In this document: piece by piece, positions 2,832-20,550 of the stretch
Layout of the letters: every line of letters begins with the position of its first letter
Position numbering within the stretch: position 1 is the stretch's first letter
Assembly: GCA_008632985.1 (NCBI GenBank)
Contig: QPGO01000099.1
Span: 289,679 to 310,228 of the forward strand
DNA from: Psammoneis japonica
Taxonomy: Eukaryota
DNA length: 20,550 nucleotides
Reading direction: 5' to 3'
Translations under genes and position numbers: made by a program
Notes under the pieces: model-generated
What the model was told of the DNA's origin: nothing
The model's database searches: none
What the model saw: only the letters and a program-made list of their open reading frames with translations

Positions 2832-3479
2832 ATGCGGCAGGTTGCCACATTTCTCACCGTGTTTGTCCTTTCGACCATGCTGAAGAAAAAATCGAGGCGT
2901 TCCATCACTCCAGAGACGCCAATGATGTCTCCCAAAAAGCAGATTGATCAAGACCGTGTGGTGACAAAAGGTAGAGTGCGTTTCAGTTCGGAGTCCACTC
3001 AGCTAAAGGTGATTCCGAGGAGAACCCCGTTGGAACAGAGAGAGTGTTGGTTCACCGCACATGACTACGCGTGTATCAAGAGACGCAATCAAGCTGCTAT
3101 TAACAGTGCCAAGAAAGGGATGTTCTTTGAGACTGAGTACGAGACCATTCGGGGTCTTGAAAAATTTATTTGGTTTGCCCCCAACGAGAAGCAACAACGA
3201 CGAAAAGCTACCATTGGACGGATTCTGAGTGAACAGAAACGACAGAAAGCGCTTGGTATTAACGACCCGAGTATGATTAAGGTGTTGTCGTCCATATACT
3301 CCAACTGGGAAAAAGATAAGGCTCTTGAGCTTGCAGCGGAAGACGAAACTGGCGTGTTAGAAACCAGAGAACCGAAGTTTCCGAGTTTCGAGAAGATGGT
3401 CGTCGTCGCAAATTGTGTCGAGAATGCGATTGAGGCATTCGCGAGTAACGCATTTGAACGTCGTACTATATGGTTGTAG
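2832..3479 (+). CDS. Second member of the diatom 'VxF...W...RGLE...LxEQxxQ...DP' family
   Basis: Contains RVRFS, CWFTAHDY, TIRGLEKF, ILSEQKRQKALGINDP and ALELAAEDE. First ATG is at 2832; the track start at 2808 is GTG. Confidence 0.8.
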   Translation: MRQVATFLTVFVLSTMLKKKSRRSITPETPMMSPKKQIDQDRVVTKGRVRFSSESTQLKVIPRRTPLEQRECWFTAHDYACIKRRNQAAINSAKKGMFFETEYETIRGLEKFIWFAPNEKQQRRKATIGRILSEQKRQKALGINDPSMIKVLSSIYSNWEKDKALELAAEDETGVLETREPKFPSFEKMVVVANCVENAIEAFASNAFERRTIWL

Positions 3480-3623
3480 ATACAATATGCGAGGCAAGAA
3501 ACGGCGAAGAGGCCACAGAAAATATTATTCATATGTGAAAAATGTAAACTGAGAAGAACGCTCTATACTACTTGAAGATTTTGTACAGTCAAGCAGACTC
3601 TCTCGAACCGCGTCTAGTACATA

Positions 3624-5762
3624 TTAGCTATGCTGAAACGCAACAGCTGCTGCTCTAAATGGTGCAGCTTGAAGCATTGTAGTTGGTCGATCCAGCCACT
3701 TAGATTCTTTGGATGCTTCCCAGACGACGCCAAAAACTTTGGTACTGAGGTTTGTCAATCCCCTTGCTTGCAGTGAGGATAAGGTAAAAAGAAAGTTATT
3801 CGAAACAAACTCCAAGACAGTTTGACACAACGCTTCGTCATTTTCCTTGACAATCGGAGCCCAGTAGCGAAAAATATTGACGAGGAGATTCTTGAGTCGA
3901 TACACTTGGCCTTCCGTTGCAAACTCCATGGCTTGGTCCAAGAAGTCAATTTGAGCCGCCTTGGCTGCTACGTCACTGCTAGCGTCAAGTATCGGAATAG
4001 ACACAGAGTCGAGGCATTCACGAATGTATTGGACCAGTCGTACCCTCAGTCGAGTCACACTACGACTATTTGGCCTTATACCAAACACCCAACGACAAAA
4101 TGAGGATATCGCCACTGTCTGGCTTGTCGAATATAAATTGTAGGCGCCCAATTCCAAAACTTTGACAACGGCGGCAACCAAAATCTTGTCGATGACTTGT
4201 TGAAGAGGTGATGCATCCTCCGATTCGTCCTTGTCGTTGTCTGAACTTTTCAACATTTCTAACCAGTCGAGTTGTGGGTGCTGTTTCTCGCCGAAATGCA
4301 AAGGATTCAAGTCCGAGCACATTTCAACGCGGACTAGCACACCCAACAGATCGGCAAAACTAAGAGACGCAAAGCACTGCTTGTATTCATCTGGATAGTG
4401 TTGTCGCCATTCCTCAAATACGCCAAAGAGACTTGACGTCGACGTGTAATCCTCGCTCAGTTCCTCCTTTGCGACATGAAGCGCCTCTAAAAGCGCAGTC
4501 CGTCGCTCTTCCTGGTCCTTTTCTTCATTCGAAGAGAAACCATTACTCGAGTAGTAGTCTTCCAGTGAGAAGCTCTCGTCCGTTTGTTGCTTTTCCCATT
4601 CTTGTCGACTCTGGCGTCGCTGTCGTGCGCGCTGTTCTCGTTGCAGCGCTTGTTGTGATTTGACATCTCTACCGAATTCATCGACTTGCGTCGCCACTTC
4701 TCGCGCTGGTATTTCTACTTGTTTTCCCAATACGCGGTCCAGTAACTGTGCCTCGGATAACGTCGCAATGACATCTGCCTGCCATTCTTGCAAGTGCTGC
4801 GGAGAAGAGATTTCGGTTTCGAGTTCCAACAAAGCTTGCTGCACCGGCTGTACTTTGGATTGCAGTTCTCGTAAGGCCCCTACCCACGACGCTAGTGTCA
4901 GACGGAGCTGCTGATAATACTCCAATGCCTTACCACTCTTGTCGAGTTCTTGTTCGTGTCGTTGTAATTCTGACCTTGTCTGCTGCAATTCCACCATGCG
5001 AACATCGTGAGCTTGTTTTATATCGTCCTGTTGGTTTCTCAAGTGACCCAGCGTCGATTCTACTTGTTGTTTCAATTGACTGAGCTTGTTCGAGGCGTCA
5101 TCGTTTGTGTTTGGTATGGCTTTGGAAGGTAGAATTCCTGCACGACGAGCAACTTGCGCCTCCCAATCTTGCGCTTCAGCATTACTATCGTCGGCAGCAA
5201 GAAAGGTTTGCTGCGGTTCCAATTCCATTTGCTCATGACTTTCATTCTGGTCAAAATTAATCGCCTCTTCTCCTGCCAGAATGACTGGCTCTGTCTCTTT
5301 AGCGGTGGAGAGAGGTATGTACGAAGGGAGAGACGTGCCTCCATCAGCTTCTACGTCTCGCGTCTCGGTACGTTGCTCCTCCGCTTCGTTCTTCTTTTCA
5401 ATCTTTTTCTTTTTGAAACGTTGCTGCGACTTGAGCTTCTCCATCGCTTCCTTTCCATACATGTCAGATTCGACGGCTTCGACGGTTTCCTCTTCAGCTT
5501 CAACAGTTATTTGTGCTCCGCCATAGCCCATACCGCCTCCTTTTCTCTTTTTCTTTTTCGTGGGTTCTTCTGTATCCAACTCGAACGAAATTTTGGAGGG
5601 AACTTTGGCTTTCTTTCGCCCTGATTTTTTGCTCTTTTGGACAGGACGCTTTACCACTACGATTTCATCTTCGGAAGACGACGCACCATCTTTATCATCA
5701 CCACTACTAGTTGACGTCGTCACGACTTTCTTCTTTTTCGGTCGTTTTGTGGGTCGAAACAT
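3624..5762 (-). CDS. GC-rich sequence DNA-binding factor-like (GCFC2/PAXBP1 family) spliceosome-associated protein, 712 aa
   Basis: Uninterrupted ORF from ATG 5762 with a Lys/acidic N-terminus including KISF, then WEAQV, a coiled coil, VDEFGRD and FEEWRQHYPDEYKQCFASLS. These resemble GCFC-domain proteins. Confidence 0.8.
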   Translation of the reverse strand: MFRPTKRPKKKKVVTTSTSSGDDKDGASSSEDEIVVVKRPVQKSKKSGRKKAKVPSKISFELDTEEPTKKKKRKGGGMGYGGAQITVEAEEETVEAVESDMYGKEAMEKLKSQQRFKKKKIEKKNEAEEQRTETRDVEADGGTSLPSYIPLSTAKETEPVILAGEEAINFDQNESHEQMELEPQQTFLAADDSNAEAQDWEAQVARRAGILPSKAIPNTNDDASNKLSQLKQQVESTLGHLRNQQDDIKQAHDVRMVELQQTRSELQRHEQELDKSGKALEYYQQLRLTLASWVGALRELQSKVQPVQQALLELETEISSPQHLQEWQADVIATLSEAQLLDRVLGKQVEIPAREVATQVDEFGRDVKSQQALQREQRARQRRQSRQEWEKQQTDESFSLEDYYSSNGFSSNEEKDQEERRTALLEALHVAKEELSEDYTSTSSLFGVFEEWRQHYPDEYKQCFASLSFADLLGVLVRVEMCSDLNPLHFGEKQHPQLDWLEMLKSSDNDKDESEDASPLQQVIDKILVAAVVKVLELGAYNLYSTSQTVAISSFCRWVFGIRPNSRSVTRLRVRLVQYIRECLDSVSIPILDASSDVAAKAAQIDFLDQAMEFATEGQVYRLKNLLVNIFRYWAPIVKENDEALCQTVLEFVSNNFLFTLSSLQARGLTNLSTKVFGVVWEASKESKWLDRPTTMLQAAPFRAAAVAFQHS

Positions 5763-7251
5763 GCTGATTCGGTACAAATTCTTCTTCACCTAAATAATCA
5801 CGAGAAGCATAGCTCAGTTTTTATTCACACAGACAACATGAAGCGAAGGATCATTGTGTATGTTGCGGGTTGCGGGCGGGTTTCAGGTTATGCGGTATCG
5901 TCTGCGGTGTGCTGCTAATTCTGGAGCTCGGACCTCGACAAAGAAGACGTCATCGGTCATCGGCGGCAGTTTTTTTTTTGCTACCGTAGAGCCTACGGCG
6001 GAATTGGTAATCCGATAGAGAGTACCAAGTTCCTACCCAAATTTTTACATACGATATAATGGTATTAATTCTACTTAGGTACACAAAAAAGATAGTGATT
6101 GAGAAATTTAGCAACGGTCACGACACAACAAATCTCCCATCTCTTCGACTTTTGCGCTCTCTCACAACTCGTCGTCTGCACGATGTGTTGTTGTTTGCCA
6201 AGCCTGAATGCCGTTATCGCCAAGGATGGCTCGCCCTTCCTCTGGATTGAGACCTTGCATTTGTTTGGCATTCCACAACTCATTTTGCTTGATGGCGTGT
6301 TGTCTCTAGGTGGCGTAGGTGTTGCCAGTTAAGTCCAGAGGTCGGGGCAAATCGAATGCGTCTCTCCGGCCTTGAGTCCATGTCACTCTCGTGTCTTTGA
6401 GCGTAGGAAGTTGCCTGTTCGCTTGACCCGTCAGGTCACGGCTGTTGAAACAGACAGCGGCGTTCGTCTGCGAAGCAGCAAAAGCTCGCCGAGCAGATCA
6501 TACTGTTGACGGAACACAGGTTTGGGGTTCTGTCGTATCAGTGGCATGATACGGTAAGTCTTCACTCGTAGGGAGTGTTGATTTAGAACGCGGTTGACTC
6601 GCAAGTTTTCTTGTTGTCTCCGTAGTACGTCCCCCCTTTTACTTTTTTTTTGTGATATTTTGTCACTCTGAAGATACGTAAAAGCTTGAGCGCTATCTTT
6701 TGATGACGCTCTTGAGGCAATGTTACCCTACGCTACCAATTTATATCAACTTTTGATATTGGTGTGTCTCAAATATTTGAAACACGCTTTGAACCTTTAC
6801 AGTAGATGTAGAAATACTTAAAGTACGACATAGCAATCTTTATTGGCGTGTTATTCATTCCGTGCGTACGTCAATGTGGACTGCGATGGCGGTCGTAGCG
6901 CTTGCAATGTCATCGCACACTTTAAACATGGGGTCCGCGACGGGGCATTCGTTACAGCGTGTTGTCGTTGATATGTGCTGGACTATTTCGGCGCTGATCG
7001 CCTGCATATTTTTATCGATTCGTCGTATTCACTTGTTGTTCGGGAGGAACAGAAGAATGCCGACTCTATGGATTCCGCTTGATCCTGTCAATGCACTTCT
7101 GTTTAAAATTCAAGCACAAAAACCAGAGGAAGCAGCGCAGAGCTACACATTACAAAGTCCATTAAAGATCAATTATGAAACAAATATACAGTAATATGAA
7201 GGAAAGTAGAAGCTGAACCGATCCTCCTTGAGCTGTCCATCCTTTTGTCGC

Positions 7252-10200
7252 TTAAACAAGGGGAGTCGTCTCAGTTTCTACTTCATTCTGCTGAGCATAT
7301 GCCACCTTGATATCTACAACGTTCATACAACCTGGCCATACCTCTCTCCACGCAGCTCTCATTTCGTGGCTTAGTTCAGGATGGTACCTTTCGAATTCCA
7401 CCGGGCTTCCCGCAAAACAAACGAGAACGGCATTGACCGAGCTACTAATGATTCCAAACAGGACACTGGTCAATACCAGCCCGACAAGCACGCCAATTCT
7501 ATCGTGTGCGATACAAATAAGAAATGAGCAAGGAAACAAACAAGGCAAACGAGCTTCCACTGGAAATTAGAACTTACGCAAACGCCTTTGCCGTCGCTCC
7601 CTGCAAAGCTTCTCTGTCGCCATTGATAAAGTTAAATCCTTCCAAATCTTCCACCAAAGACCCAAAGACCCCGGTGCAGCCTCCAATTACCAGACTAACC
7701 ATGAGTAAAATGTTTGGGATCAAGTCGTCCGCCACAATCTGCGCCCAGCCTCGCTTCTCAAATAGCTTCGTGGCATGGTGACCGGCATCAAGCAAGCTAT
7801 ATCCATACAATCCAACATAGGTAAAAGCAACGGATTAAAATATGCCGCCAAATTGTCCGCCACGGAAGCAATGCAATTTTGAATACACGACAGGCACTCG
7901 TGCAAGCACATGAGAGCCGTGTCGTCCACTTGGTTGGGACGGAAAAAGAGCGAAAACTGACGAATGAGACGGACGGGTCCGACAAGAAGGCTTCCAAAGC
8001 AAATGGATCCAAAGTACAAGGAAATTGAATACAAGACATTCCTTGTAGGAGTTCCGTCGCAAAATCGAGCATGTTCCTTAAACCACCAACAACCAATCGT
8101 CCCGGCCACCGAAACTTGGACAATATTCTGAACAGCAAACCGTGAAAATAGAGGATTAGATGAATCGAAACTCCGTACTGAGACACAACAATCGTAAACA
8201 ATATTCTTACCAATAGCACATGAAATGTCCAATAGTAAGAAATGGCAAGCATGGTGTACAGAAATATTGTAGCCTGTTTACCAATGACAAGATCGCCAGT
8301 TTCAATGGCGTCGTATACACCCACAACAACAAAGGTGTAGTAAATGGACCAACCCAACGCCAATCCTTGAAAGAAAAATGAAATTAACACGGTTCCAAAG
8401 TTTTCTCGGATAGCACTGAGCGCCGTCAGCAGATTCGCCGTGGCAAAGGGGATACGGTCCCAAACGACAAAGGTATAACCAACACTCAGTGCAAGGGCAA
8501 TGATTCCGGTAATGGGAACAATATTCTTTGGGCTCAGACCAATCCCAATGGTTCCCCAGCAAAAGCTCAAACCAATCGTCAGAATGAGCGCCACTTGAAC
8601 CACACGACGAGCAAACACTGCCATGAGCCACAAGACGAGCGACGACACGGCAATTGCAAAGGCCCCGCAGAGACAAGCCACATAAATGACATTTGCATAA
8701 GCCACCGTCACGTGTAAAGGATCATCGTCGTCATCAATTGAACCGTTCCTTCTGCTAAACGCGTCGGGACCATACATGGAACCCAAGTACACCATGCCAA
8801 TCAAGTGCAAGACAAACAAGACTGCAAACAAGACATCCCTGCAAGCCTTGGGCTGTTGCGTACCCTTGGATTCTTCCATGTAGATTTGTGCCGACTGCTG
8901 TCGCATATTCATCTTTCGGATGGATTGCGCCGATCGCTTGTGCCTACCGGACGATGATGATTCCTTGTTGGCTTGAATCAAGTCCTCAGGGACACCACCA
9001 CCCTCTTCCACAAAGTGCCCCAAGCTACGGGGTGTGTGAGGAGAAAACGTCACACCACGAGGATCCTCACCACCGCCGGGATACGATGACGGACCACTAT
9101 TACTTCCTTTGCGAAGGACCGATGCCGGAGGAGGAGTCATGGTTGCCGGAGACAAGCCCGGCGGAATGCCCATGGTTGTGTGAGGCGAAACCTGTTGGTA
9201 GGTTTGTACAGGAGACTGTGGGGGTGTCCTTCGGCTCCCACTTGTTGGTCGCTGCGGCGAAAAGGCATTGGCCAACGACATGATTTCGCCGCGAGGAGAA
9301 AACTGACTGCGAGGAGAATATTGCTGTCGAGGGGAGCTCTTTTCGGGAGTAATTCCGGCGGATGTTGGAGGCGGAACTGGCTGCTGCATGGAGCCGTACT
9401 GCTGCTGGATTTGTCCTGAAGCAGAAGAGGATCGTACCCGGTTGCTAGAGAACTGTTGGTTGCGGATACGACGAGAACCACCATTCTCCATAGGTGATGC
9501 GTCTACGGCCATCCCATCTTGATTTAAAATAGGAATGAGGGGATTGCCCGCAGGAGAAAGGGCGGGTGACTGACCATTCCAATATCCTACCATATCTGGA
9601 ACCGGTACGTTGGGATCACTCTGAACACGGTGATGCCCACGCATACGTTGGTGCGCTGGTGGACTCTGATACATTACCTGCTGCTGCTGTTGCTGCTGCT
9701 GTTGCTGCTGCTGTAACATATACTCCTGATACGTGGCTGGAGGATACAGTTGAGGAGGGATGGGGTAGCGCTGCTGCATCTGTTGCGCATAATATGGATC
9801 TTCCTGAGGATGTCCGTAGTAACGATAATCTTCACTGGTCGTTCGTCGATGGTGGTGATGGTGGCGCCGAGAATGATGACGTTCGCTTACTGCTTTCTTC
9901 CCAAACTCATTAGAAGCATACTGCTCTTCTTCCGTCAGCATGGGGCCCAAGTCTGAATTTGCTTTCTTACGCCTCCTCCTTCGCTCTGATTTACTAGACG
10001 TTCTGGTTGAGCCTCTGGAGTCGACCGCAGCAACTGGAGGCCGCGCCGTAGCAGAGGGCCCAATGGTTTCCAGAATGGATGGCTGCTGCAGAGCTGTTGA
10101 TGGTTCTACGAGTGGCTTGGTAGGCGGATCCTCGCCTGCTGTGTCTTCACGGTTGTCAGTTTGCGGTGTTGCGGTCGAAGTTGACGCCGGCGAGCCAATG

Positions 10201-10280
10201 TTGTTCTGCGTCATGGTTGTTGCCTCGGGGAAAAGTTGCCGAGGCCCGGCGTCTTCTACCGCCACTCCTCCAGCCATCAT
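7252..10280 (-). CDS. Choline transporter-like (CTL/SLC44/Pns1) membrane protein with long low-complexity N-terminus. Exons 10280-8211, 8127-7578 and 7498-7252; apparent 1-nt frameshift at ~7830
   Basis: Contains CRDVLFAVLF, VWDRIPFATANL, YYWTFHVLL|NIVQVSVAGTIGCWWF, FGSICFGSLLV, AFTYVGLYGYS, LFEKRGW, IVADDLI and SSSVNAVLVCFA. GT-AG introns at 8210-8128 (83 nt) and 7577-7499 (79 nt) join these in frame. Confidence 0.88.
9678..9713 (-). repeat. (CAG/CAA)12 polyglutamine tract in the CTL gene N-terminus
   Basis: ctgctgctgctgttgctgctgctgttgctgctgctg on the + strand encodes Q12 on the minus strand. Confidence 0.9.
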
Positions 10281-10720
10281 GTCTCAGTCATGTGGGGTGG
10301 TGATGGCTACTACTTCGCAGTTATCACCCCCACACGACGGGATTGCCGGGAAACAACTCCGGCACGTTTGTGAATTCTTCCGCTTCATGTCGCGTCCCGC
10401 ATGCATCGTACTTGGATCGCGAGCGGAGTTTTCCCGCCAAAAATACCGGCAGACAAAATGAAATTTTCATATCGAATTTTTATTTATTTAGGACGGAGAA
10501 ACTTGACGTCGTAGTTCTTAAGTGATCTGGCGTGCTTTCCACGTGTACTTAATAAAAGAAATTTTTCGACCGTTAGATCAATGAATGATGTATTCGGATA
10601 TTAATAGATCACTTATTGGACAAACTTCCGCAAATCATTTCGGACCCACACTCGCGATCTCACTCTTCGCAGACCGGAAAGCTCACCCACCACAAAACGA
10701 CATGGCATTGACACGCGTTA

Positions 10721-13700
10721 CCAGCGGCCCTTCCCGGGCGCAGCAGCTCTTTGCTGCACCTTCTTGATGGCTTGTCAAGGGTCATTGATGGATGAAAAAA
10801 TCAAACGGCACTCTTTGTCTCTCGCTCGTTCGTCAATTTCAAAACTGAAAAGCTTTGAGTTTGCCACAACATTTTCGGTTGTCAGCCTTGCACAACAATG
10901 GCCGACATTGTTGCTGTTGCTCTCACATGGCTCTTCCCACAAGAAGTGTCCTCCTTTGATGTGTGCCAGCATTTCAAGTGTTGGTCTTAGATTGTTTCTC
11001 TCTCGACGATTTTTTGGTTTCCAGCGGCCAAGCTGTGCAACAACGTGGCGGCTGTGCCGACCAAACTCATTTTTCCATTTTTTTGTGTGGTGTCAAGGGC
11101 ATGTTCATCCTGTCTCTGCAGACTTTTTCAAGCAAACAGAACATGGAATGCATTGACATGGTTGGGAAATCACATCTGAGTTTTGTCACACCACTGGGGG
11201 CACAAAGGCGTGTTTGCAATGTCAAAACACGCAGATGAGAGCAATCAACCACGAGTGCATCAACTTCTCCAACAAAGGTGCAGACAGACAGACAAAAAAA
11301 TGTCATTCCAGACAAGGTCAAAAAGCAACAATGTGCTGACAATGGCGGAACAAATCTGTGCCCAAATGACACCCCAGCCCACTTTCGGAAGTTGAGAGCT
11401 TTCACAGTGTTCCGCGACATGGAGAGTGTTGGTCAGAGCTCTTTTGCAGTGGATCAACCTTGTCTCTTGACCACTCTCCATTTCTGCTTCTGGCTTCATT
11501 GCAATCCATTGAAGCTTGGGTGGGTCCCTCTGCCATCACCTTCTTGGGCTCGACTCCATCCTGCCGTGTTGCCCTGGATTCAACAGCAACACCAGCAGCT
11601 TTGCATCAGGCAACTTTCAAGACTGCTGTGGAGCCAGATGATCCATCAACCACAGACTTGGGTGGACAATGATGCTGCAGCACATCTCATGAACCTTGTC
11701 AAAATCAATCCCAAGTCCAAGGCAGGGCATGCAGCCAACTCGTGGCCACAAAGCAGGTGCCGGTGCCCCACAACCTCCTTGATTTTGTCTGGCTGGAGGC
11801 TGGGATTGGGGTGCCTTTTTGCATGTCCTCTCTCAAGATCATGGTCAATGGTGGCACCAGTGGCCCACAGGAAGTTGGTCCACAGTCAAGCCCTTGACTG
11901 GCATCATGGAAATGTCGTTGCTCCAAGGGCCTGGTCAGAATGCAGGGGTCTGTCAAAAAAGACTTTGAAAAAAGACATTTGTGGCAGTGGCAATGCAAGC
12001 TTCTTGGGAGGTCTGGGCACACTGCATCAAAAGAAAAGAAAGATGAAGAGGAGGACCTTTTGACAGACAGCAAAGCCCATGTCAAACATGTGGGAGGCCC
12101 GCTGCACACGTGCAACAGCAAATCTTCCACCACAACAGTGTTGGAAGTCACCGTTTGACCTCTCACTGTTGTCAATGCTCCCCTGGACGTCAATGGATTG
12201 GTTGACAACATTTTGGAGTTGTTGTCTGAGAATCGCATTTTGGAGTTCTTGGCCATTGCACCCAAGCCAGCCAAAGAGGAAGAGGAGTGCAAGACAAACA
12301 GACCAAACAAAGAAGAAGCCAATGAAGCTGAAGGGGGAAATGCCTCAGAAAAGAAACCCTTGGGAGAATGATTGAACTCAACCTTTGACAAGGTTGGTGG
12401 CTTGGATGCCCAGCTGGACTCCATCATCCATTGTGTTCTTGCCAGTGGCGCCACCCCTGAAGCTGCCAAATGACTGGGCATCAACCATGTCCAAGGCATT
12501 CTTCTGAGTTCTGAGTGGGCCTCCTGGTTGTGGGGTGACCTTGTTGGCAAGAGAGTTGGCAACCTTGTCAGGTGCCCAAGAACAAATTGTCAACGGCCCT
12601 AAAATTCTTGATGAACTCATTCCGAAAAGCAAGTCCAAGCCCTCTTTGCTCCTGCAGAACAGAAATGCAAACAAGCTGGCAACATGTCTGCTTTTTTCAC
12701 ATTGTTGCTCTCAATGAAATGGACGCCATTGCCAGAAAGAGAGGCAGCGTGACAAGCAACATGGCTGGAGTGTGTGGCAGCATTGTCAACCAACTGTTGG
12801 CCATGACATGGATGGAGTCCAAGAGGCCAACAATGTCCTCATTGTTGGACTTGTGTGAATCAACCTGATCTGCTGGATCCAGCGTTGTTGCATCCTGGTT
12901 GACTGGAAGTGCATCTTTGGGCAGAATTGCCTGATGATGCTGGCAGAAAAGACATTCTTTGAGCTCATGCAAGGTCAACAAAGGAGGCAGGAGGAGTCAG
13001 CAAAGATGCCCAAGCATGTCTTGAAGACCTTGGCAAGAAGGGATTGCCTGTCATCACAGAGCACTGCACTGGAGCTGAACTTGCAGAGGCTTGGTGCGGA
13101 GTGCTGCAAGCTTTGCCTTGGCATGCACCACAGTGCAGCAGGATGATGATGGTGCCAATGGTGTTCTTGCAGTCAAAGACCTCAATGATGCCTTGAGAGA
13201 AGTTCGGCCAGTCCTTGGGAAGCAAGATGAAGTTTTGAAGGCAAGATGTCCTCATGGCACTGGCCTTTGCTCTTCTTCCATGAAGCGAGTCCTCTGTGAT
13301 CTTGATCAAATTTGTTGCACTGCCTTTGAGATCTTTCACTTTGGAGTTGGCAGAGTCAATGCCACCAGTTGGTGGTGGCACTGGAAGCAGGTGTGGAGCC
13401 ACTGCGCTTGCCACCCAGACTGCTGGCTGCCAAAGCTTCCTCTCGACTGGAGCATCAGAATTTGTTTGCTTTGCTACAGCACTGGACTTGCTGGTCGATG
13501 GGGGCTGGACAGGCTGCTGCTCTGGCAGAAAAGTTTGTGGAAGCCTGAGAAATGCCCGGGTCTCTTCCAGTTCTGAAGGACATTGACCAAGTTTGTGCGG
13601 GATCTGGACCCAATGGCTGCAGTGGCGCCATGATTTCCACTCTGCGGGCACTGCTGCAAACTCCACCTGGAACATCCACTGCAGCCAAGGCAGGCAGTCA

Positions 13701-13990
13701 GTCCAAGGTGACTGAAAAACACTTTCGAGTCATTGCTGCCACATCAATGTCCAATGCTGCCTGCTCTGTTTTGAATGAGTGCTTTGTCCAAACAGTTGCA
13801 GTTCCCCAGCCAGTTGGATCTGAATCAATGGCACAGCTGCTGCGGGATAGTTTCAGTGCAACTGAGAACATGTCCTCGACCCTGGACGAGGACAAAGTCA
13901 ATGCCATGGCAGATGCCATGAACAACTTGTTTGAGAATGGTGCAGGCGTCAAATTGGCCCTGCGCTTTGTCGAAAAGGCCATTGCCGTGG
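10721..13990. other. Hypermutated domain A: TpA almost absent, CpG depleted, TpG/CpA enriched
   Basis: Manual scan finds only 4 TA dinucleotides in ~3.3 kb (10988, 12600, 13475, 13848) and none in 10990-12599. Flanking DNA has TA on nearly every line. Confidence 0.92.
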
Positions 13991-14124
13991 TTACCATGGA
14001 ACAAAGTCACCTCGCGAATGACGCAGACTTGAAACGTTCACGATTGCACGCCCTGGAAGAAATGATGGAGGACTGCCTCAGCAACGAAGCTGTTGCAAAC
14101 GAAGTTTGCGATGCAACATTCTAG
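11419..14124 (+). pseudogene. Degenerate NSF/Sec18-like (vesicle-fusing) AAA+ ATPase gene, possibly with a bipartite plastid-targeting leader
   Basis: FDKVGGLDAQLDSIIHCVLAS..PEAAK*LGINHVQGILLS/GPPGCGVTLLARELA (12384-12561), IVNGPKILD, HIVALNEMDAIARKRGS (Walker B), SIVNQLLA/MDGV..NNVLIVGL, NQPDLLDPALLHPG*LEVH (second region of homology), EHCTGAELA/GLVRSAASFALA, a degenerate D2, and TAG at 14122-14124. Multiple TGA stops and frameshifts. The 5' start is tentative. Confidence 0.9.
12503..12516 (+). repeat. 7-bp tandem duplication (TCTGAGT x2) frameshifting the gene just before the Walker A motif
   Basis: cttctgagttctgagtgggcctcctggttgtggg; removing one copy restores GILLSGPPGCG. Confidence 0.85.
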
Positions 14125-14388
14125 TAAAACTGCTGTTGCTGCCACTGGTGACATAAATACTACTCCGCTATCCTGACACTGTATTTGACATGGTTGTAGC
14201 TAGAAGAGTTATGGAAGCTGCAATGAGGCCATTTCTCAGAAAGGAATGACACGGATTCATGGCAGCTCCAAAAAATATTGACTCGTCATGCTAAAATGGG
14301 CAGGTAGGGCAAAGGCGTCGAAGGCCTTGTATTCAAAATGGAATGGGCAGATTTGTAGCGCATGAATAAGTAGAAGAAACAGGATTAT

Positions 14389-15530
14389 TTACTCCTTGCC
14401 GGCTTTGGAGAGATCCACAGGAAGTAATCGGCGTTTGAATTCGGCCACCAATTCTTCGTGGGTTCGCTTTGGTTGACCAACATTCAAATAGTACTTGGCC
14501 AATTCATCAAACTTTCCGTTGAGAACCAATGTTCCCACTTCCATTGTTCCAATGCCGTCAAAGATGAGGGAATCGTTCGCAGCGTGCTTGTCCAAATTCT
14601 TCAAAAACAAGTCGGGAAGTTGATACCATGGTAGACCAGGCTCTTCGTGGTGTTCAATGTGGTATCCAGTATTGAAGTTGAGAGAGTTGGAAGGACAGTT
14701 GATGCAGCTCATGGCAGTCTTATAGTTGTTGCCGTAGTCCTCGGGATCAACGAAAATGTGTTCCTTGAAGTTTCCTTGCATCAAACCGAAACTGATAAAG
14801 ATCCACGGAAGAATCAAAGTGAACATGGCGGCGATTGGGCTGTTCATGTAGGCATAGGAAAGAATAGCAACAAAAGTGACCGAGCCTGTAAGAGATTGCA
14901 GTGCCAAGCCAGGCTTGTTCATTTGCATAAGTCGGAATGGCAATTCCAAGTTACCAAACGACCAGAAACGGAACATGTACTTGAAATGATTCCACTTGGA
15001 GGAGCGATCATAATCCATAGTGGAACTCATGTCGTGAGGAGCAACATTGTCAACTGCATGATGCATACCAATGTGGTGAGGGTAGTAGAGGCCAGGAGGA
15101 ATACCAAACATGACGCAAATACCAGCCTTGAAAACGTGGTCCAAGAAACGGTAGGTCGAGTTGAAAATGGAACAATGCGAAATGAAGTGCAATGCCAACA
15201 CGAAAGATCGTCCCCAGCACTTCATATGAATAGCTGTGTATGCAACTCCAAGAATGATTTGTTGGCTCACAGGTAGAAGATTGTTTTGTTCGATGTAGTA
15301 CAACATAACGGCAACTGGCAAACTGGTTGCAAGAATGTTCATGCCACGTAAAAGATTCCTAGGTTTCGGCGATCCTTGCGTCGAAGAAAGGTCTCCACAA
15401 CCCAATCTTCCAAGAACTTGGGAAAGGTGAATAGATGTTCCCGATGCTTTTGCTCATAATCAACGTAGTTGAGAGTCTTCTTGTTTAGAAGTTTCGCCTT
15501 GGTCGATGGTCGGACATCGGCAGCAACCAT
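14389..15530 (-). CDS. Membrane fatty-acid desaturase-like protein with three His boxes; apparent 1-nt frameshift at ~15344
   Basis: Contains HFISH, YYPHHIGMHH, GNFKEHIF and FNTGYHIEHH plus TM segments. The upstream ORF 15530-15339 (MVAADV...LGIFYV) joins MNILATSLP if one base is added at tacgtggcatgaac. Confidence 0.85.
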
Positions 15531-15874
15531 TTCTTGGTCGAAGGACTTTTCAGGAGCCTTGCAAATTAACTATAGCCTTCTTATTTACGATTTCTGTCGA
15601 AACGCCTCAAAAATACAGTGTAAATACGAACAGAGAATCAACAACGGAAGTGATCTCCACAAAGCCAACGCCCAATGCCAAGCAATGCAAGAGTCGCGAG
15701 CGAAGGTTGTCGTGAAAAAAAAATTGGGAAACAATAAATCGGTGTTCGCAGAAACTTGACTAGTTCGACTGATTGTTTTTGCCCAACTTCCCACGCGTTG
15801 CAACACGACAGACAAGCCGACAAACGACAATGGCGAAGAGCCGATGCGGCCCCGTTCTTGAAAACTGCCGGTCA

Positions 15875-15952
15875 GTGGCTAAAAGAATTTTGCATGCAAG
15901 TTGATAGCACTACAATTGAGTTCGTACTTCTATTAAAAAAACTTTTAGCCAC
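15875..15952. repeat. 11-bp perfect inverted repeat (GTGGCTAAAAG / CTTTTAGCCAC) at the border of hypermutated domain B
   Basis: Arms at 15875-15885 and 15942-15952. The match extends imperfectly inward (aatttt vs aaaaaa) and outward (CAGTGG.. vs CTGTGG..). Confidence 0.7.
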
Positions 15953-17599
15953 AGGAACAAATTGAAGAAGATGTGGACCCGGGCTGCTGCAGGAACATGT
16001 TTCTCTCCAAAATTCATCAAAGGCAAATTGGCCTTTGCAAAGTTCTGCTCATTCCTTCAAAAGGGGGCACCGGGTGAATTCCTTAGGAAAATGTGATTGC
16101 ACCCACTTGATGCATGCCATCAAGCCATTGTTGACAAAATTGCCAACAAAAATCTTGGCAGCATTTGGGGTGTCAGCCCAACCCCAGCACTTGGCCCTTT
16201 CGTTTGACAAGGGGTGACTTGATGCTGAGGCTGGCGGTGTTGTTGAAAACTGGAGCAAGGAGAAAGTGCCAAATTTGCATCCACCAGAAAGTCGTGAAGA
16301 CTTGCGTGGCAATGACTTCTTGAGTGTTGGTCTTGTCGCCCTCTCGGTCTCAAAGCCAACACAGAGATTGATGCTTTTGACAAGACACTCAATGTTGCAA
16401 ACAAACTTTGTGTTCTGAAGAAAAAGGAGAGTTGGCAGTGTGACAGCAAGGACAATGATGAGCTGACTTGCAGTGCTTCCACTTCTCAGGGTCTTTCCCA
16501 CTTGGACAGCTTGAGCTCACCTCCAAAATTCAGCTCATCAAAAAAACTCTCTCAGATGGAAATGGCGACAGTGTTCCCAGTTGGCTTTGCATTGACATTG
16601 ACAAGCGGCTCTCCTCAAACAGTTGTTGTCAGCTCAAAATGATGTTGTTGAACATGTTTGACATTTTCAAGCAACGTGTGGCATTGGTTGTTTCTGAATT
16701 TTTCTGAAATTTTTGATTTGTTGTCTTCTGTGTTGATGCTGAGTGTAAATTTGTGTTGTGCGAGCACCACTGTTGCTCATCCGATGTTGTGCCCAAGGAT
16801 TAAAAATGGCCAACAAAGTTGCAATGACTTTGGCGTGGACCAATCAAAAGTGCACTCACTTTGTGTGGACATGCCCAACTTCCCCAGATGGCCTGGAGGA
16901 AGTGTGCCACATCTGCATGGACTCACAGTGAGATTTCACATGACATTCACCTTCTTGCATCTGGATCAGACTTGTCATTGTTCTGCAGATGGAGTGGCAA
17001 CAAAATGGTTTGCATGGTTGTTTGAGTTGCATGCTGATCAACAGAAGCAACTGTCAACAATCAACCAACCACAACTCTGGAGCAGCACGATGATGGAGTG
17101 ATGATGGGGGCAGCACTGCCTGCAAACTCTTGCTTGTTTGCAAAGACAGGAATGGGAAGATGTCAGTGCAATTGTTCACTCAGCCAAATTTCAAGTGTTG
17201 TCTCTCTAAGAAGAAATGTCTTCTTGACATCCATTGAAGTGTTGCAGCAATGGGTGGCTTGCTCCATCCAAGCTGTCTTTAGATGCCATTGGGCACTGTG
17301 TGCTTGTGCTGGACAATGTCCCACAACAGCCATTGCCTGAGCAGAATTCATCCAAACTGCAAAGAAAAGCTGCCTTTGTCAAAGTGCACAACTCTCAAGA
17401 TCTGGAACAGCTTCATGACTTTTTGCATGAGGAGATCAACAAAATGTTTGTCTTGAGATGTTGCAACACAAGAGGCGCCAAAATCAACTGTCAACTTGCA
17501 GCTGTTCAGATCATGGAGTTGAGCAAGAATGGTGTCAGAGCTTGGAGTCAACAGAGCATTTAAAACTTCAGCTCTAGAAGAAGCTCAAATGAAGGCTTT

Positions 17600-18420
17600 G
17601 GACAGAGCATTGCCACAGACTTGCAGCGTGTCATTGGTGACGGAAATTGCCAGCAGCAGTGCACTGTCAGCAATTGTGGTTGTTCCTGTGAAGCCATTGG
17701 CTGCAGTGGGAGTGAGGGTTTGTTTGCCACTGCCGGCCTTCCTTTTGACAACAAAACCTCCATGCTGTTGTCATTGAGTGCACCGGTGAATGTGCTGCCA
17801 CGGCTGCCGGCTCCCAGCATCAGCAAGGAGTTGCCACCTGATGGCAAGTTGGGGATGTGCCGCGCCCGCCATGCCTGAAAGTTTGTCCAGTGATTTGACC
17901 AAGCTGGAGAGGAACAGGCTCAAACCACCACCCACATCAAGGCTGGAGGCATCAGGGATCTGGTTTGATGCCCCACTTCCCAGGCTGATTTGCAGTGTCA
18001 AGTTGTTGACCTGTGCCAATGTCCCCACTGTCCAACGTGCCAAAAAGCCCCACAAAGTTCAATGAACCAACACTCAAGTGTTGCCCATTGTGTTGACTTG
18101 CCCATTGGTGGTGGCATTGTCAATGTGCATCTCCCCCGCAAAGGACAGCTGCCCGCCAGATGCGCTGAGTTGCCCACAAAGACCTCGGCAGCAGAAAAAC
18201 TGTTGCCTGATCCAATCATCATGGTTGGTCTGGCAGTGTGCATGGTGTTGCTGGAGAATGGCACCGCATCACTGAGTGCCACTGTTCCACCAGAAATCTT
18301 CCAGTTGGCCCCATGGCACAATCACCATTGCTGTTGTCATTGCCCCAATGGACATCCGTCATTCTGCAGGCGGCAAAGGCAGAACTGAAAGCGGCAAAGC
18401 TGGTTGCAGCCTGTGGCCAT
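17600..18420 (-). pseudogene. Relic of a bacterial-type secreted protein with an autotransporter-associated beta-strand (PATR) repeat
   Basis: Minus-strand fragments across frameshifts: TDVHWGNDNSNGD..GANWKISGGTV, IGSGNSFSAAEVFVG, LGSGASNQIPDASSLDVGGG, GGNSLLMLGAGSRGSTFTGALND and KAGSGKQTLTPTAANGFTGTTTIADSALLL (17740-17651). The last fits the PATR pattern K.G.G.LTL...N.(Y/F)TG.TT(I/V)..G.L.L. Confidence 0.75.
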
Positions 18421-18825
18421 GCTTGGTGTCTCAGAAGTCATTTTTGTCATTTGTCAATTGCACTTTTCCAAGATCAAGCATGCCTGCTTTGAACAGGCCT
18501 TGACCTGTCATTGGGACAGTGGTGATGGTGAATGGGAAGGTGGCAAGAACCGCCAGAGTGTTGCAAACCAGCTGGCCCATCAGATGTCCTCAAGAATCAT
18601 GATGCCAAGAAGAAGAGGCCCCATCAAAGGTGCAGAAGCTGCCCACATGTGAGGGCAAAAGTGCTTGCAAACACAACTGCTTGCAATGATGTGGGTGTCT
18701 TTTCACCAAGTTTTCTTTGGACCAAAGATTTGCGTCAATGCTCCGTTGCACTTTGGGGCCACTCCTTTGCCCCAGCGGGGGTGCAAAGAGTTCCTTGCAC
18801 TCTTCAGGGCAATGAGGGCTGCACT

Positions 18826-19670
18826 TTAGAATTTGCACTGCTTGATGTTCCAACAGCCGATTGTGAGCATCACAGCAATGAAGAGAGTGCAGCTCTGTGC
18901 TGGCTGCCATGGATCAAATTGAGCATGTTGGGGTGGCTGCTGATGTCTTGGCCAAGCCCCATTGTGCTGGACACTGAGCCGTCAAGGGCATGGGTGTTTT
19001 TGCCAATCATGGTGCAGTGCATCATCCTGCCCAACTCTCCTGGTCATGGCAGAGTCATGCACAGTGGCACCACCATCCCATGGCAAATGGCCGCTGCGCC
19101 AATGCAAATGCCAAAGGGCTGCCAGCCTTCATTGAATTCAGGCAGCTTGGGCTGAGCCTTCATTGAATCCAGGCAGCTTGGGCTGAGAGTTTGCTTCGCC
19201 ATCAATGGGGGCAAGAACCCCATCAACTCTTGCACCTGCACCGCTTGATTGATGAGGAGCATCAAATCAGGGCTGTTGAAGGTCATGGCAGAGATGTTGC
19301 CCTGTGACCAAAGGCTGGCCATTCCCAGTTTCTGCTCACTGCTGTTGTAAATCCAAAGGCTGCAATTCTGAAACAAGAGGGCAAGCCACTTGCCATCATT
19401 GGAGGAGCCGATGAAGCATGGCGGCACTTCACCTTTGGGTGAGAATTCGTGCAGCTCATGCAGCATTTTGGCATCCAGCACAAAGACCTTGGTGCATCCC
19501 TGCAAAGGCCAAGAGTGGTGGCCTTCTGAGCGCTGTTGGCAATTTTCTCATGTTTGCTCTGGGTGCAGTTTCCTTCATCATCTGTGTTGAAGATTGCCAC
19601 ATTGCTGCTGGTGCAAATGGCAACCTGCCACCATGCATTGCTGGTGTCTGTCTGACAGCTCTGCCCAATC
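18826..19670 (-). pseudogene. Relic of the C-terminal part of a bacterial (Planctomycete-like) ABC-2 transporter permease with a beta-propeller-like extracytoplasmic region
   Basis: Fragments QVAICTSSNVAIFNTDDEGNC, LAFAG, KVFVLDAKMLHELHEFSPKGEVPPCFIGSSNDGKWLALLFQNCSLWIY, SQGNISAMTF, VVPLCMTLP*PGELG and DPWQPAQSCTLFIAVMLTIGCWNIKQCKF* (TAA at 18828-18826). The family assignment is from recalled resemblance, not a search. Confidence 0.55.
19124..19185. repeat. 31-bp tandem duplication (1 mismatch) inside the permease relic
   Basis: agccttcattgaattcaggcagcttgggctg (19124-19154) followed by agccttcattgaatccaggcagcttgggctg (19155-19185). Confidence 0.9.
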
Positions 19671-20550
19671 ATTCAAAATGATGCCCTTGTTGTCAACATC
19701 TTGCGTTGTTGCTGCATGCAATTCGCACAGAAAATTGCAAAAACCCAGCAACAGCAATGCCCCAAAATCAACCACAAACTGCATCCAGGGTCAATGTGGG
19801 TGAACATCCCTGCTCATTGCTCACCACAAGATGCGCATGGTGTGTTTTGTTGCATGAAAACTGGCCAACAGCATTGCCGGCAGCACACCACTGTCAGCAT
19901 TGAATGCCGCATGAAAAGCATGGGGACAACTCTTCTGTCGCATTTGTCTGTCTGTTGCCCAGCTGCACTGCATCTGTCAACAGTTTTTTCTGATGCACAT
20001 TTCTTCCACCTGTGGCATCCCCGCTGAAGCTTGTGCTCAGCCACCTTCACTGGCAGCATCCCCATTTCTCCCTTTCTCGTGTTCACAACAAGTTCTTCAA
20101 AGCCGCCAACCTGCGCACCTGCAGAGATTGCAACCACAGCAAGTGCACCTGCCTTTCTCTCCATGTCATCTTGAGGGTCACCTTCATGCCAAGCACTCTG
20201 TGCCTTGGACCACCCTCAATGCCAACATTGTTGCTTCCGCCCTCGGCAGACCGGCTCCAGTCCCAGGCGGGACTCCGTGTGACATTTGGCCCACAGAATT
20301 CTGTGCATGTGAACTCCGCAGTAAATTTGTCAAGCAATGAAAATGCAAATGATCGTCAACAGAAAAAGAGGCAATTTTACGAACCTGTCTCCTCCTCCAC
20401 ACTTGCAGCACATCACAAACAGCTTGCCCAGGTGTGTTCTGCAGACATCAAAGAATGCATCCAGCACACTCTGCTTGCTCTTCCTCCTCTCCCAGATGAC
20501 CCCATCTTCTGTCCTCTGAAGCCCCCTTTTGCTCTTGGCTCTTGGCAGAT

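Follow-up and report, generated by a model that had tools for sequence, protein, structure and literature searches.

A dead NSF/Sec18-like gene copy of the diatom Psammoneis japonica in a bounded 3.5-kb island, probably rewritten at CpG and TpA

A stretch of 20,550 nucleotides (nt) from Psammoneis japonica (NCBI GenBank assembly GCA_008632985.1, contig QPGO01000099.1, positions 289,679 to 310,228 of the forward strand; hereafter the window, with positions counted from its first letter) was analyzed for a decayed AAA+ gene and the DNA around it. We conclude, with a probability of roughly 0.85, that a dead two-ring gene of the NSF/Sec18-like type was rewritten by two kinds of transition, CpG to TpG or CpA and TpA to TpG or CpA, within a bounded island of 3.5 kb. 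This reading was obtained by comparing the sequence with its functional relatives, and the main features are as follows.

10620..14121, no strand: TA-erased island (island 1), 3502 bases with 6 TA, observed/expected ratio (o/e) 0.03.
11060..13840, no strand: CG-poor core inside island 1, CG o/e 0.20 and TA o/e 0.01.
11771..14124, + strand: NSF/Sec18-like AAA+ pseudogene, covering columns 86-819 of an 821-column profile of relatives, with its stop codon at 14122-14124.
12156..13255, + strand: linker and first (D1) ATPase ring with lid, the segment described in an earlier note on this DNA.
13552..14124, + strand: longest open remnant, 190 amino acids (aa), C-terminal part of the second ring, the query that retrieved the relatives.

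When dinucleotides were scanned along the window, two blocks were observed with nearly zero TA, few CG and a strong excess of TG and CA. Outside both blocks the o/e was about 0.9-1.3 for CG and about 0.5-0.8 for TA. The first block, island 1, contains 6 TA (o/e 0.03; at 10719, 10988, 12600, 13475, 13848 and 13992), 74 CG (0.34), 374 TG (1.71) and 358 CA (1.63). Its edges are sharp: TA is dense through 10614 and again from 14122, with the borders resolved to about 100-130 bases, and the TA o/e is 0.76 in the 339 bases to the left and 0.84 in the 267 bases to the right. The GC content of the island (0.49-0.51 in 1-kb segments starting at 11001-12501) is not above that of the neighbouring genes.

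A fixed criterion was then used for comparison, namely a 600-nt segment with TA o/e <0.15, GC <0.60 and TG+CA o/e >1.4. It was satisfied by 35 of 100 segments of this stretch and by 0 of 1690 segments in 80 related metagenome loci, so that no second example of a TA-free island was seen in those loci. The composition of the island is far beyond chance.

The loss of TA and the loss of CG do not share their borders. In the outer zones of island 1 (10620-11059 and 13841-14121) the TA o/e is 0.07 and 0.12, and the CG o/e is 0.89 and 0.90; TA erasure thus extends 280-440 bases past the CG-poor core on both sides. The left zone, 440 bases with 2 TA, is the clearer case. In the coding part of the right zone the pseudogene has about 2 TA and 11.5 CG, compared with means of 10.1 TA (minimum 2) and 10.4 CG in 18 relatives, which by itself does no more than suggest that the two losses are uncoupled there. 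The right edge of TA erasure coincides with the stop codon of the dead gene and is followed by a TA-rich spacer of 267 bases and a convergent desaturase gene. About 760 bases 5' of the likely gene start, which are unassigned and apparently non-coding, are equally TA-free. TpA erasure and CpG decay are therefore separable processes with different borders, and the former ends abruptly. Because the outer zones are TA-poor with normal CG, TpA erasure does not merely track CpG decay.

AAA+ ATPase fragments are spread over all three forward frames of 10700-13800, and positions 12849-13094, translated with X at TGA, match chains of the Cdc48/p97/NSF type. When the 190-aa remnant was used as the query, 23 longer proteins were retrieved (E <= 0.001). 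Two of these carry the names of diatoms, Cylindrotheca fusiformis and C. closterium, and the sources of several give the label 'vesicle-fusing ATPase'. The profile of these 23 proteins (821 columns) aligned with the window over 693 codons at 11771-14115, through both rings. The first 117-130 residues of the 857-875-aa relatives stayed unaligned and would occupy approximately 11380-11770, and the pseudogene starts at or before 11771.

In the case of the full-length relative P0003, the best solved match was Sec18/NSF, in a single stretch over both rings (E-values of 8.6e-92 and 3.1e-90); the former value belongs to the uninterrupted alignment of residues 313-736 with Sec18 residues 244-660. The D1 consensus of the relatives is intact (GPPGCGKT, ILDEMD and LLRPGR), and the consensus of their second-ring P-loop is without GKT. 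A search of Pfam at E <= 0.001 gave no domain of the CDC48_N or NSF-N type in the full-length relatives P0003, P0008 and P0017. The comparator family is, as judged from these matches, one of diatom-type NSF/Sec18-like proteins and not canonical NSF. The identity given in the earlier note, NSF-like, is a fair label for both rings because P0003 best matches Sec18/NSF across both; the segment assigned to it (12156-13255) is dead NSF-like sequence as claimed but too short, as homology spans 11771-14124. In Pfam searches of the six frames of 10500-14128 only the AAA domain was found, with no viral or transposon domain. No match was obtained when six neighbouring open reading frame products were compared with the 80 related loci (flanks up to 3 kb).

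The pseudogene lies in 10 frame segments joined by 9 frame switches. Since the profile coordinates continue across the switches without loss, these are indels and not introns. The lesions in the D1 motifs are listed below.

12503..12516, + strand: tandem duplication of the 7-base unit TCTGAGT, which causes the frame switch before Walker A.
12517..12540, + strand: Walker A remnant GPPGCGVT, catalytic Lys replaced by Val (GTG at 12535).
12704..12718, + strand: Walker B remnant, consensus IILDE now VALNE (LDEMD now LNEMD).
12885..12902, + strand: arginine-finger motif, LLRPGR now LLHPG-stop (CAT at 12891, TGA at 12900).

With a single copy of TCTGAGT the frame would give GILLSGPPGCG, which is the consensus of the relatives. 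The Walker B changes are of both types: Asp to Asn at 12713 is GAT to AAT after C (CpG-type), and Ile to Val at 12704 is ATT to GTT after T (TpA-type). At the arginine finger, both columns hold Arg in 20 of 20 aligned related proteins, and that of 12900 in 44 of 44 loci. Nine in-frame stops were found (11780, 11966, 12156, 12369, 12471, 12612, 12900, 12960 and 13546; the alignment is uncertain at 11966 and 12612). As the earlier note had stated for the internal stops it saw, all nine are TGA; six fall on Arg-dominated columns. Its statement that the reconstructed frame contains no Tyr also holds for the whole alignment, with 0 Tyr codons in 693 aligned codons; relatives carry 0.4-2.1 % Tyr on the same columns. 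The absence of Tyr and the uniform TGA stops follow from the regional composition, in which TA is nearly absent. These lesions mark the gene copy as dead: besides the nine breaks in its frame, it no longer has the Lys of Walker A, the Asp of Walker B or either Arg of LLRPGR.

For the direction of change, 44 of the 80 related loci were used, after exclusion of nine near-identical duplicates, of loci with <500 aligned columns and of loci with <43 % identity to the pseudogene. The main column set comprises the 335 columns in which 80 % or more of the 44 loci agree. Only 10 of 36 Arg are kept, and 20 of the 26 changed ones are Cys, Trp, His, Gln or stop, the exact one-step CpG products. None of the 4 Tyr is kept, all four having become Cys or His. 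Other residues are kept at 231 of 295 columns (78 %). When each of the 44 functional loci was left out in turn and treated in the same way, Arg was kept at a median of 97 % (minimum 75 %) and other residues at a median of 95 % (minimum 75 %); Arg became Cys, Trp, His, Gln or stop 0-2 times per locus, and Tyr never became Cys or His.

A similar picture was obtained with the first column set, drawn from the 23-protein profile at a conservation of 70 % or more among six or more relatives (409 columns, of which 290 are kept). Here 10 of 39 Arg are kept, 22 became TGA (5), Gln (8), His (3), Cys (5) or Trp (1), and 7 became other residues, while 0 of 5 Tyr are kept (Cys 3, His 1, Phe 1). The codons produced point the same way. 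Leu to Pro is always CCA (3 of 3 in the 23-protein profile, 4 of 4 against the 44 loci), and Val to Ala is GCA in 5 of 5 cases with the profile and in 2 of 3 against the 44 loci, the third being GCT. Read against the relatives, the direction is CG to TG or CA and TA to TG or CA.

Changes were classified by the single step that could produce them from any of the consensus residue's codons, the CpG or TpA path being taken whenever available. Among 94 changed columns the pseudogene has 32 CpG-type, 16 TpA-type, 16 other-transition, 15 transversion and 15 multi-step changes. The 44 relatives pooled have 841 changes in 13,962 columns, of which 36 are CpG-type, 17 TpA-type, 201 other transitions, 349 transversions and 238 multi-step. 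The share of the CpG and TpA types is thus 48 of 94 in the pseudogene versus 53 of 841 in the relatives (Fisher odds ratio 15.5, p 2e-26). Per column, these two types are found at 48 of 335 versus 53 of 13,962 (odds ratio 44), and all other changes at 46 of 335 versus 788 of 13,962 (odds ratio 2.7). The context classes are about 16 times stronger than the general relaxation. Both strands are affected: on the + strand, the TpA-type changes are 8 A>G and 8 T>C, and the CpG-type changes are 11 C>T and 21 G>A.

The codons named in the earlier note were all present, and 10 of its 14 site-level ancestral inferences hold against the relatives. RR had become HC at 12429-12434. Arg had been lost at TGA 12156, 12471, 12900 and 12960, at CAA 12492 and at CAT 12891, so that LLRPGR reads LLHPG-stop. 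Walker B Asp to Asn at 12713, Thr to Ala at 12969 and Val to Ala at 12921 were likewise borne out. A former Arg at TGA 12369 was not, as Lys predominates in this column (K 27, A 6, T 1, R 1 among the 44 loci) and CGA to TGA does not explain the stop. The three sites at which Tyr had been proposed are ambiguous: the relatives have Phe in 20 of 21 at 13065 (F 20, Y 1), F 15 and Y 8 at 13247, and L 6, F 6, Y 6, H 2 and 3 others at 13253. The His at 13062 is ambiguous in the same way (Y 11, H 9, K 1). The note had also held that substitutions outside CG and TA, if equally frequent, would speak against its reading. The raw counts at the 335 columns are 48 versus 46 and hence about equal; with the relatives as control, CpG and TpA changes are raised about 44-fold and the rest about 2.7-fold. 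The test in its raw-count form is ill-posed without such a control. Its broader claim, that a formerly normal gene was mutated and that the composition is not a codon bias, is supported: the relatives polarise the changes, the frame is broken nine times and non-coding DNA upstream is TA-free.

One of the two TA left in the core (12600-12603) seems to be new. The codon AAA stands after T at a position with a conserved Glu in 44 relatives, which fits a change of GAA to AAA. If this TA was newly made, erased DNA can regain TA, a point that matters for judging if the process still runs at this locus.

The dinucleotides lost and gained balance each other. Mass balance was calculated on the same aligned columns with 26 loci of GC 0.44-0.56, taken from 29 loci with at least 600 shared columns. 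The relatives have, per kb, 45.3 TA, 49.2 CG, 80.6 TG and 61.4 CA (sum 236.6), and the pseudogene has 2.4, 16.6, 119.5 and 95.5 (sum 234.0). The deficits of 42.9 TA and 32.6 CG per kb, 75.5 together, are thus balanced by a gain of 73.0 in TG and CA. The gain is similar on both strands (TG +38.6 and CA +33.8 per kb, 24 loci). When all 16 dinucleotides were compared with 24 loci, AA, TT, GG, GT, TC and AC were unchanged (|z| <= 0.6; AA +0.5, TT -0.6, TC -0.2), AG was slightly down (z -1.2), AT and GA were down, and CC, GC and CT were up. The shifts in AT, GA, CC, GC and CT would be those expected for neighbours of TA and CG conversions. Conversion is specific to the two dinucleotides.

Several observations weigh against this reading or narrow it. 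The Lys to Val change in Walker A is a two-step change of neither the CpG nor the TpA type, and neither process explains it or the nine indels. The raised frequency of other changes means that part of the divergence would be ordinary decay or a lineage difference. The ancestral codons come from relatives that are about 50 % identical in protein, and synonymous sites are without polarity. The rule by which changes were classified favours the CpG or TpA path, a bias that the control carries as well. The TA deficit of the right outer zone, taken alone, is still within the range of the 18 relatives (minimum 2). DNA run X1, used below for the assembly, may be the source sample and hence not independent. 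Finally, Pfam revealed no named viral or transposon sequence in island 1, unlike the targets of TpA hypermutation in Bigelowiella natans, which are considered at the end.

In the reading that we prefer, two context-specific transition processes acted on DNA of both strands, nearly to completion, over a segment made up of the gene and about 1.1 kb of upstream DNA, and converted about 75 sites per kb. The first, CpG to TpG or CpA, acted on the central 2.8 kb, presumably by deamination of 5-methylcytosine. The second, TpA to TpG or CpA, acted on the whole 3.5 kb with sharp edges, and a locus-directed enzyme may be responsible. Its chemistry could be that of an adenine deaminase working on DNA at TpA (A to inosine, read as G), a candidate that we put forward tentatively, at slightly under even odds. 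In a broader form, diatoms would possess a locus-directed TpA to TpG or CpA mutator that is saturating and sharp-edged, whose domain is independent of and wider than the CpG-decay core (presumably methylated), and that is not limited to viruses, transposons or high-copy DNA but able to erase a stand-alone cellular gene copy between two intact genes; we regard this proposition as evenly balanced.

The same outcome could be reached from the thymine side. A modified thymine of the 5-hydroxymethyluracil (5-hmU) type at TpA would mispair with G, as 5-hmU does, and give T>C, and because TpA is its own complement the result would look alike. The modified base is enriched over repeats in a dinoflagellate according to PMC11071213, which also cites Steele and Rae (1980) for preferential replacement of T in TA and TC contexts; the title of PMC11572971 names a role of 5-hmU in silencing transposons in dinoflagellates. 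However, the base-resolution mapping in Breviolum described in PMC11071213 is without such a context preference, and TC is not depleted here (z -0.2). We consider this route unlikely, though it deserves to be kept in view. A general AT to GC pressure, for instance through GC-biased gene conversion or a bias of regional repair, would agree with the net change at TA, which is from A:T to G:C. AA and TT are nevertheless unchanged relative to the relatives (z +0.5 and -0.6), the GC of the island (0.49-0.51) is not above that of its neighbours, and the sum of TA, CG, TG and CA is conserved. Since AA, TT and the like are unchanged and the remaining shifts would be neighbour effects, the composition argues against such a drift, which is highly improbable.

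Editing of RNA followed by reverse transcription would mean that an ADAR-like enzyme hyper-edited a transcript and that the island is its retro-copy. The TpA context agrees with the preference of ADAR for a 5' U (as given in the Discussion of the B. natans preprint, bioRxiv 10.64898/2026.01.13.699255), and no intron is visible in the copy, whose profile coordinates are continuous. A single edited RNA strand would, however, give A>G or T>C only, and both occur here (8 and 8); the gains of TG and CA are alike (+38.6 and +33.8 per kb), and TA is also missing from the approximately 760 bases that precede the likely start. Because A>G equals T>C and upstream DNA is affected, an edited retro-copy is very unlikely. 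A functional gene that avoids TA and CG, by codon bias, avoidance of nucleases or reading of TGA as a residue, would explain why the stops are all TGA, with six of nine on Arg-dominated columns, and why a frame of 190 aa is open at the 3' end. It is contradicted by the frameshifts, nine switches with continuous homology, and by the missing key residues of Walker A (Lys), Walker B (Asp) and the arginine-finger motif (both Arg). Moreover, 78 % of other conserved residues are kept, versus a median of 95 % in relatives, and the unassigned flanking DNA is TA-free. We consider a functional gene practically untenable.

An artefact of assembly or sequencing has to be weighed as well, since the stretch was found in a single DNA run, possibly the source sample. 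The Logan contigs of this run, X1, contain 0.88 of the sampled words of the stretch. Contigs of X1 bridge both edges of island 1 into normal genes (record 6, 9719-10803; record 7, 13000-15696) at word depths of 60.6 and 55.7, similar to the neighbouring genes (about 50-65), although Logan contig depths are not copy numbers. In addition, the changes obey codon logic against the relatives. We give an artefact hardly any credence.

How the process was aimed at this locus is a separate question. The target of island 1 belongs to a family of cellular diatom genes and lies between two intact genes. These two neighbours may bound a domain of silent chromatin, a possibility to which we give a little less than an even chance; alternatively, and more doubtfully, a segment may have been duplicated whose ends are the ends of the island. 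No repeats of at least 40 bases were found within the window, in which no part of island 1 is repeated, and the only tandem repeats were a CTG run and a 31-base unit. Rfam gave no match over the whole window. Approximately 4 kb from island 1 lies a repeat (5837-7170) whose summed X1 depth of 3000-6000 compares with about 55 for neighbouring genes and whose contigs have numerous joints and loose ends. With a CG o/e of about 1.1-1.2 and a TA o/e of 0.6-0.8 it is normal in composition and untouched by TA erasure, a hint that the process is not simply guided by copy number. For 5790-7796, the sole Pfam match, at one end, was to a choline transporter and below threshold, and Rfam gave no match.

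Two contigs of X1 with about half the depth (31.4 and 35.4) lie in island 1. They show a skip of 112 bases at 12109-12222 and 34 extra bases at 11259-11263, the inserted bases including TA, and are probably allelic forms of the pseudogene. Among the 40 X1 differences listed, no allelic TA versus TG or CA difference was found in island 1.

A second island reaches the end of the window.

15950..20550, no strand: second TA/CG-erased island (island 2), 11 TA (o/e 0.04), CG o/e 0.23, running off the window end.

Its left TA edge is sharp (TA at 15946, then at 16084), and CG thins more gradually inside. Pfam searches in six frames gave only a sub-threshold PATR match. The island contains a 31-base tandem repeat at 19124-19187, and an X1 contig depth of about 22,500 was recorded over 19844-20500.

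Between the two islands lies a fatty-acid desaturase gene (14389-15405, - strand) of normal composition. At 338 aa its listed frame falls short of its relatives (about 345-400 aa), and an intron or the true start probably lies outside that frame. The best named match is from Nitzschia sp. (67 % identity), with Amphora among the others, in keeping with a pennate diatom. On the left side lies a choline-transporter-like gene (frame 7797-10280, - strand). Contigs of a further run, X2, skip 7499-7577 (79 bases) and 8128-8210 (83 bases) there with CT..AC ends. The skipped bases look like spliced introns (GT..AG on the - strand), and X2 looks RNA-like though it is recorded as 'DNA?'. X2 is without cover in the bins 10506-13840 and 15842-19176, which is no evidence for silence. 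Among the runs listed for the stretch, none is recorded as RNA. A CTG/TGC run of 12 copies (9678-9714) lies in the choline-transporter-like frame, and reads seem to be cut there.

Among known systems, the closest is the TpA-restricted hypermutation of B. natans described in the 2026 preprint of Mettrop et al. (bioRxiv 10.64898/2026.01.13.699255). Two integrated viral regions of its mutation-accumulation lines gained 231 new mutations; 230 of these were A>G or T>C, each at TpA, at rates about 1000-fold over background and in some lines only, and an ADAT-like adenine deaminase was proposed. The preprint also describes genome-wide clusters that are poor in TpA and rich in CpA and TpG, including some TpA-depleted coding sequences with host-type domains. 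A full-text literature search returned this preprint, on a rhizarian alga, for TpA-restricted hypermutation of chromosomal DNA and no report from a diatom. The TpA process in P. japonica carries the same signature, A:T to G:C hypermutation restricted to TpA: as in the nucleocytoplasmic large DNA virus (NCLDV) and virophage DNA of B. natans, A>G and T>C occur at TpA, on both strands and in bounded regions. There are clear differences. B. natans is a chlorarachniophyte with integrated viral targets, whereas the target here is a cellular gene copy of a diatom (a stramenopile) without viral or transposon domain. Erasure is deeper (TA o/e 0.03, versus a Rho of 0.45 given for the NCLDV region of B. 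natans) and, unlike there, combined with CpG decay in a nested core. In B. natans the rate was measured in real time, whereas here only the end state is seen.

The present case adds a clean polarity, with a control of 44 relatives and a mass balance, and it separates TpA erasure from CpG decay by their borders. It also indicates that foreign or high-copy DNA is not the only possible target, which can as well be a stand-alone cellular gene between two intact genes. These findings are relevant to the aiming of the process (chromatin domain versus duplicated segment) and to any hunt for its enzyme; a DNA adenine editor of natural origin with TpA specificity would interest base-editing work. If the broader proposition is true, then together with the B. 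natans data TpA editing would be a system of genome defence or gene disposal that is shared, or evolved twice, in the SAR (stramenopile, alveolate and rhizarian) supergroup.

Other systems account for parts of the pattern. Deamination of 5-methylcytosine is the textbook cause of CpG to TpG or CpA in vertebrates and plants. It fits the CG to TG or CA changes (32 of 94) and the CG o/e of 0.20 in the core, but it covers the CG part only, in a domain 280-440 bases narrower per side than TA erasure. Hyper-editing of the ADAR type and APOBEC-type editing also produce clustered deaminase-type transitions with a neighbour preference; however, the substrates of these enzymes are RNA or single-stranded cDNA and their signature is confined to one strand, whereas both strands and upstream DNA are affected here. 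In the case of NSF/Sec18 itself, the tandem D1-D2 architecture is shared by the relatives, and the copy in the window is dead.

RIP (repeat-induced point mutation) in Neurospora and other fungi likewise kills genes by bounded, context-specific transitions and serves as a genome defence of premeiotic style. It makes TpA from CpA, and RIPped duplicates are sharp-edged. RIP is a C to T process targeted by homology, as the Discussion of the B. natans preprint (bioRxiv 10.64898/2026.01.13.699255) puts it. The direction in P. japonica is opposite, since TpA is destroyed (TA o/e 0.03) and TG (1.71) and CA (1.63) are made, and the high-depth repeat 4 kb away is unmutated. If the proposed mutator exists in diatoms, it would be the chemical mirror image of fungal RIP.

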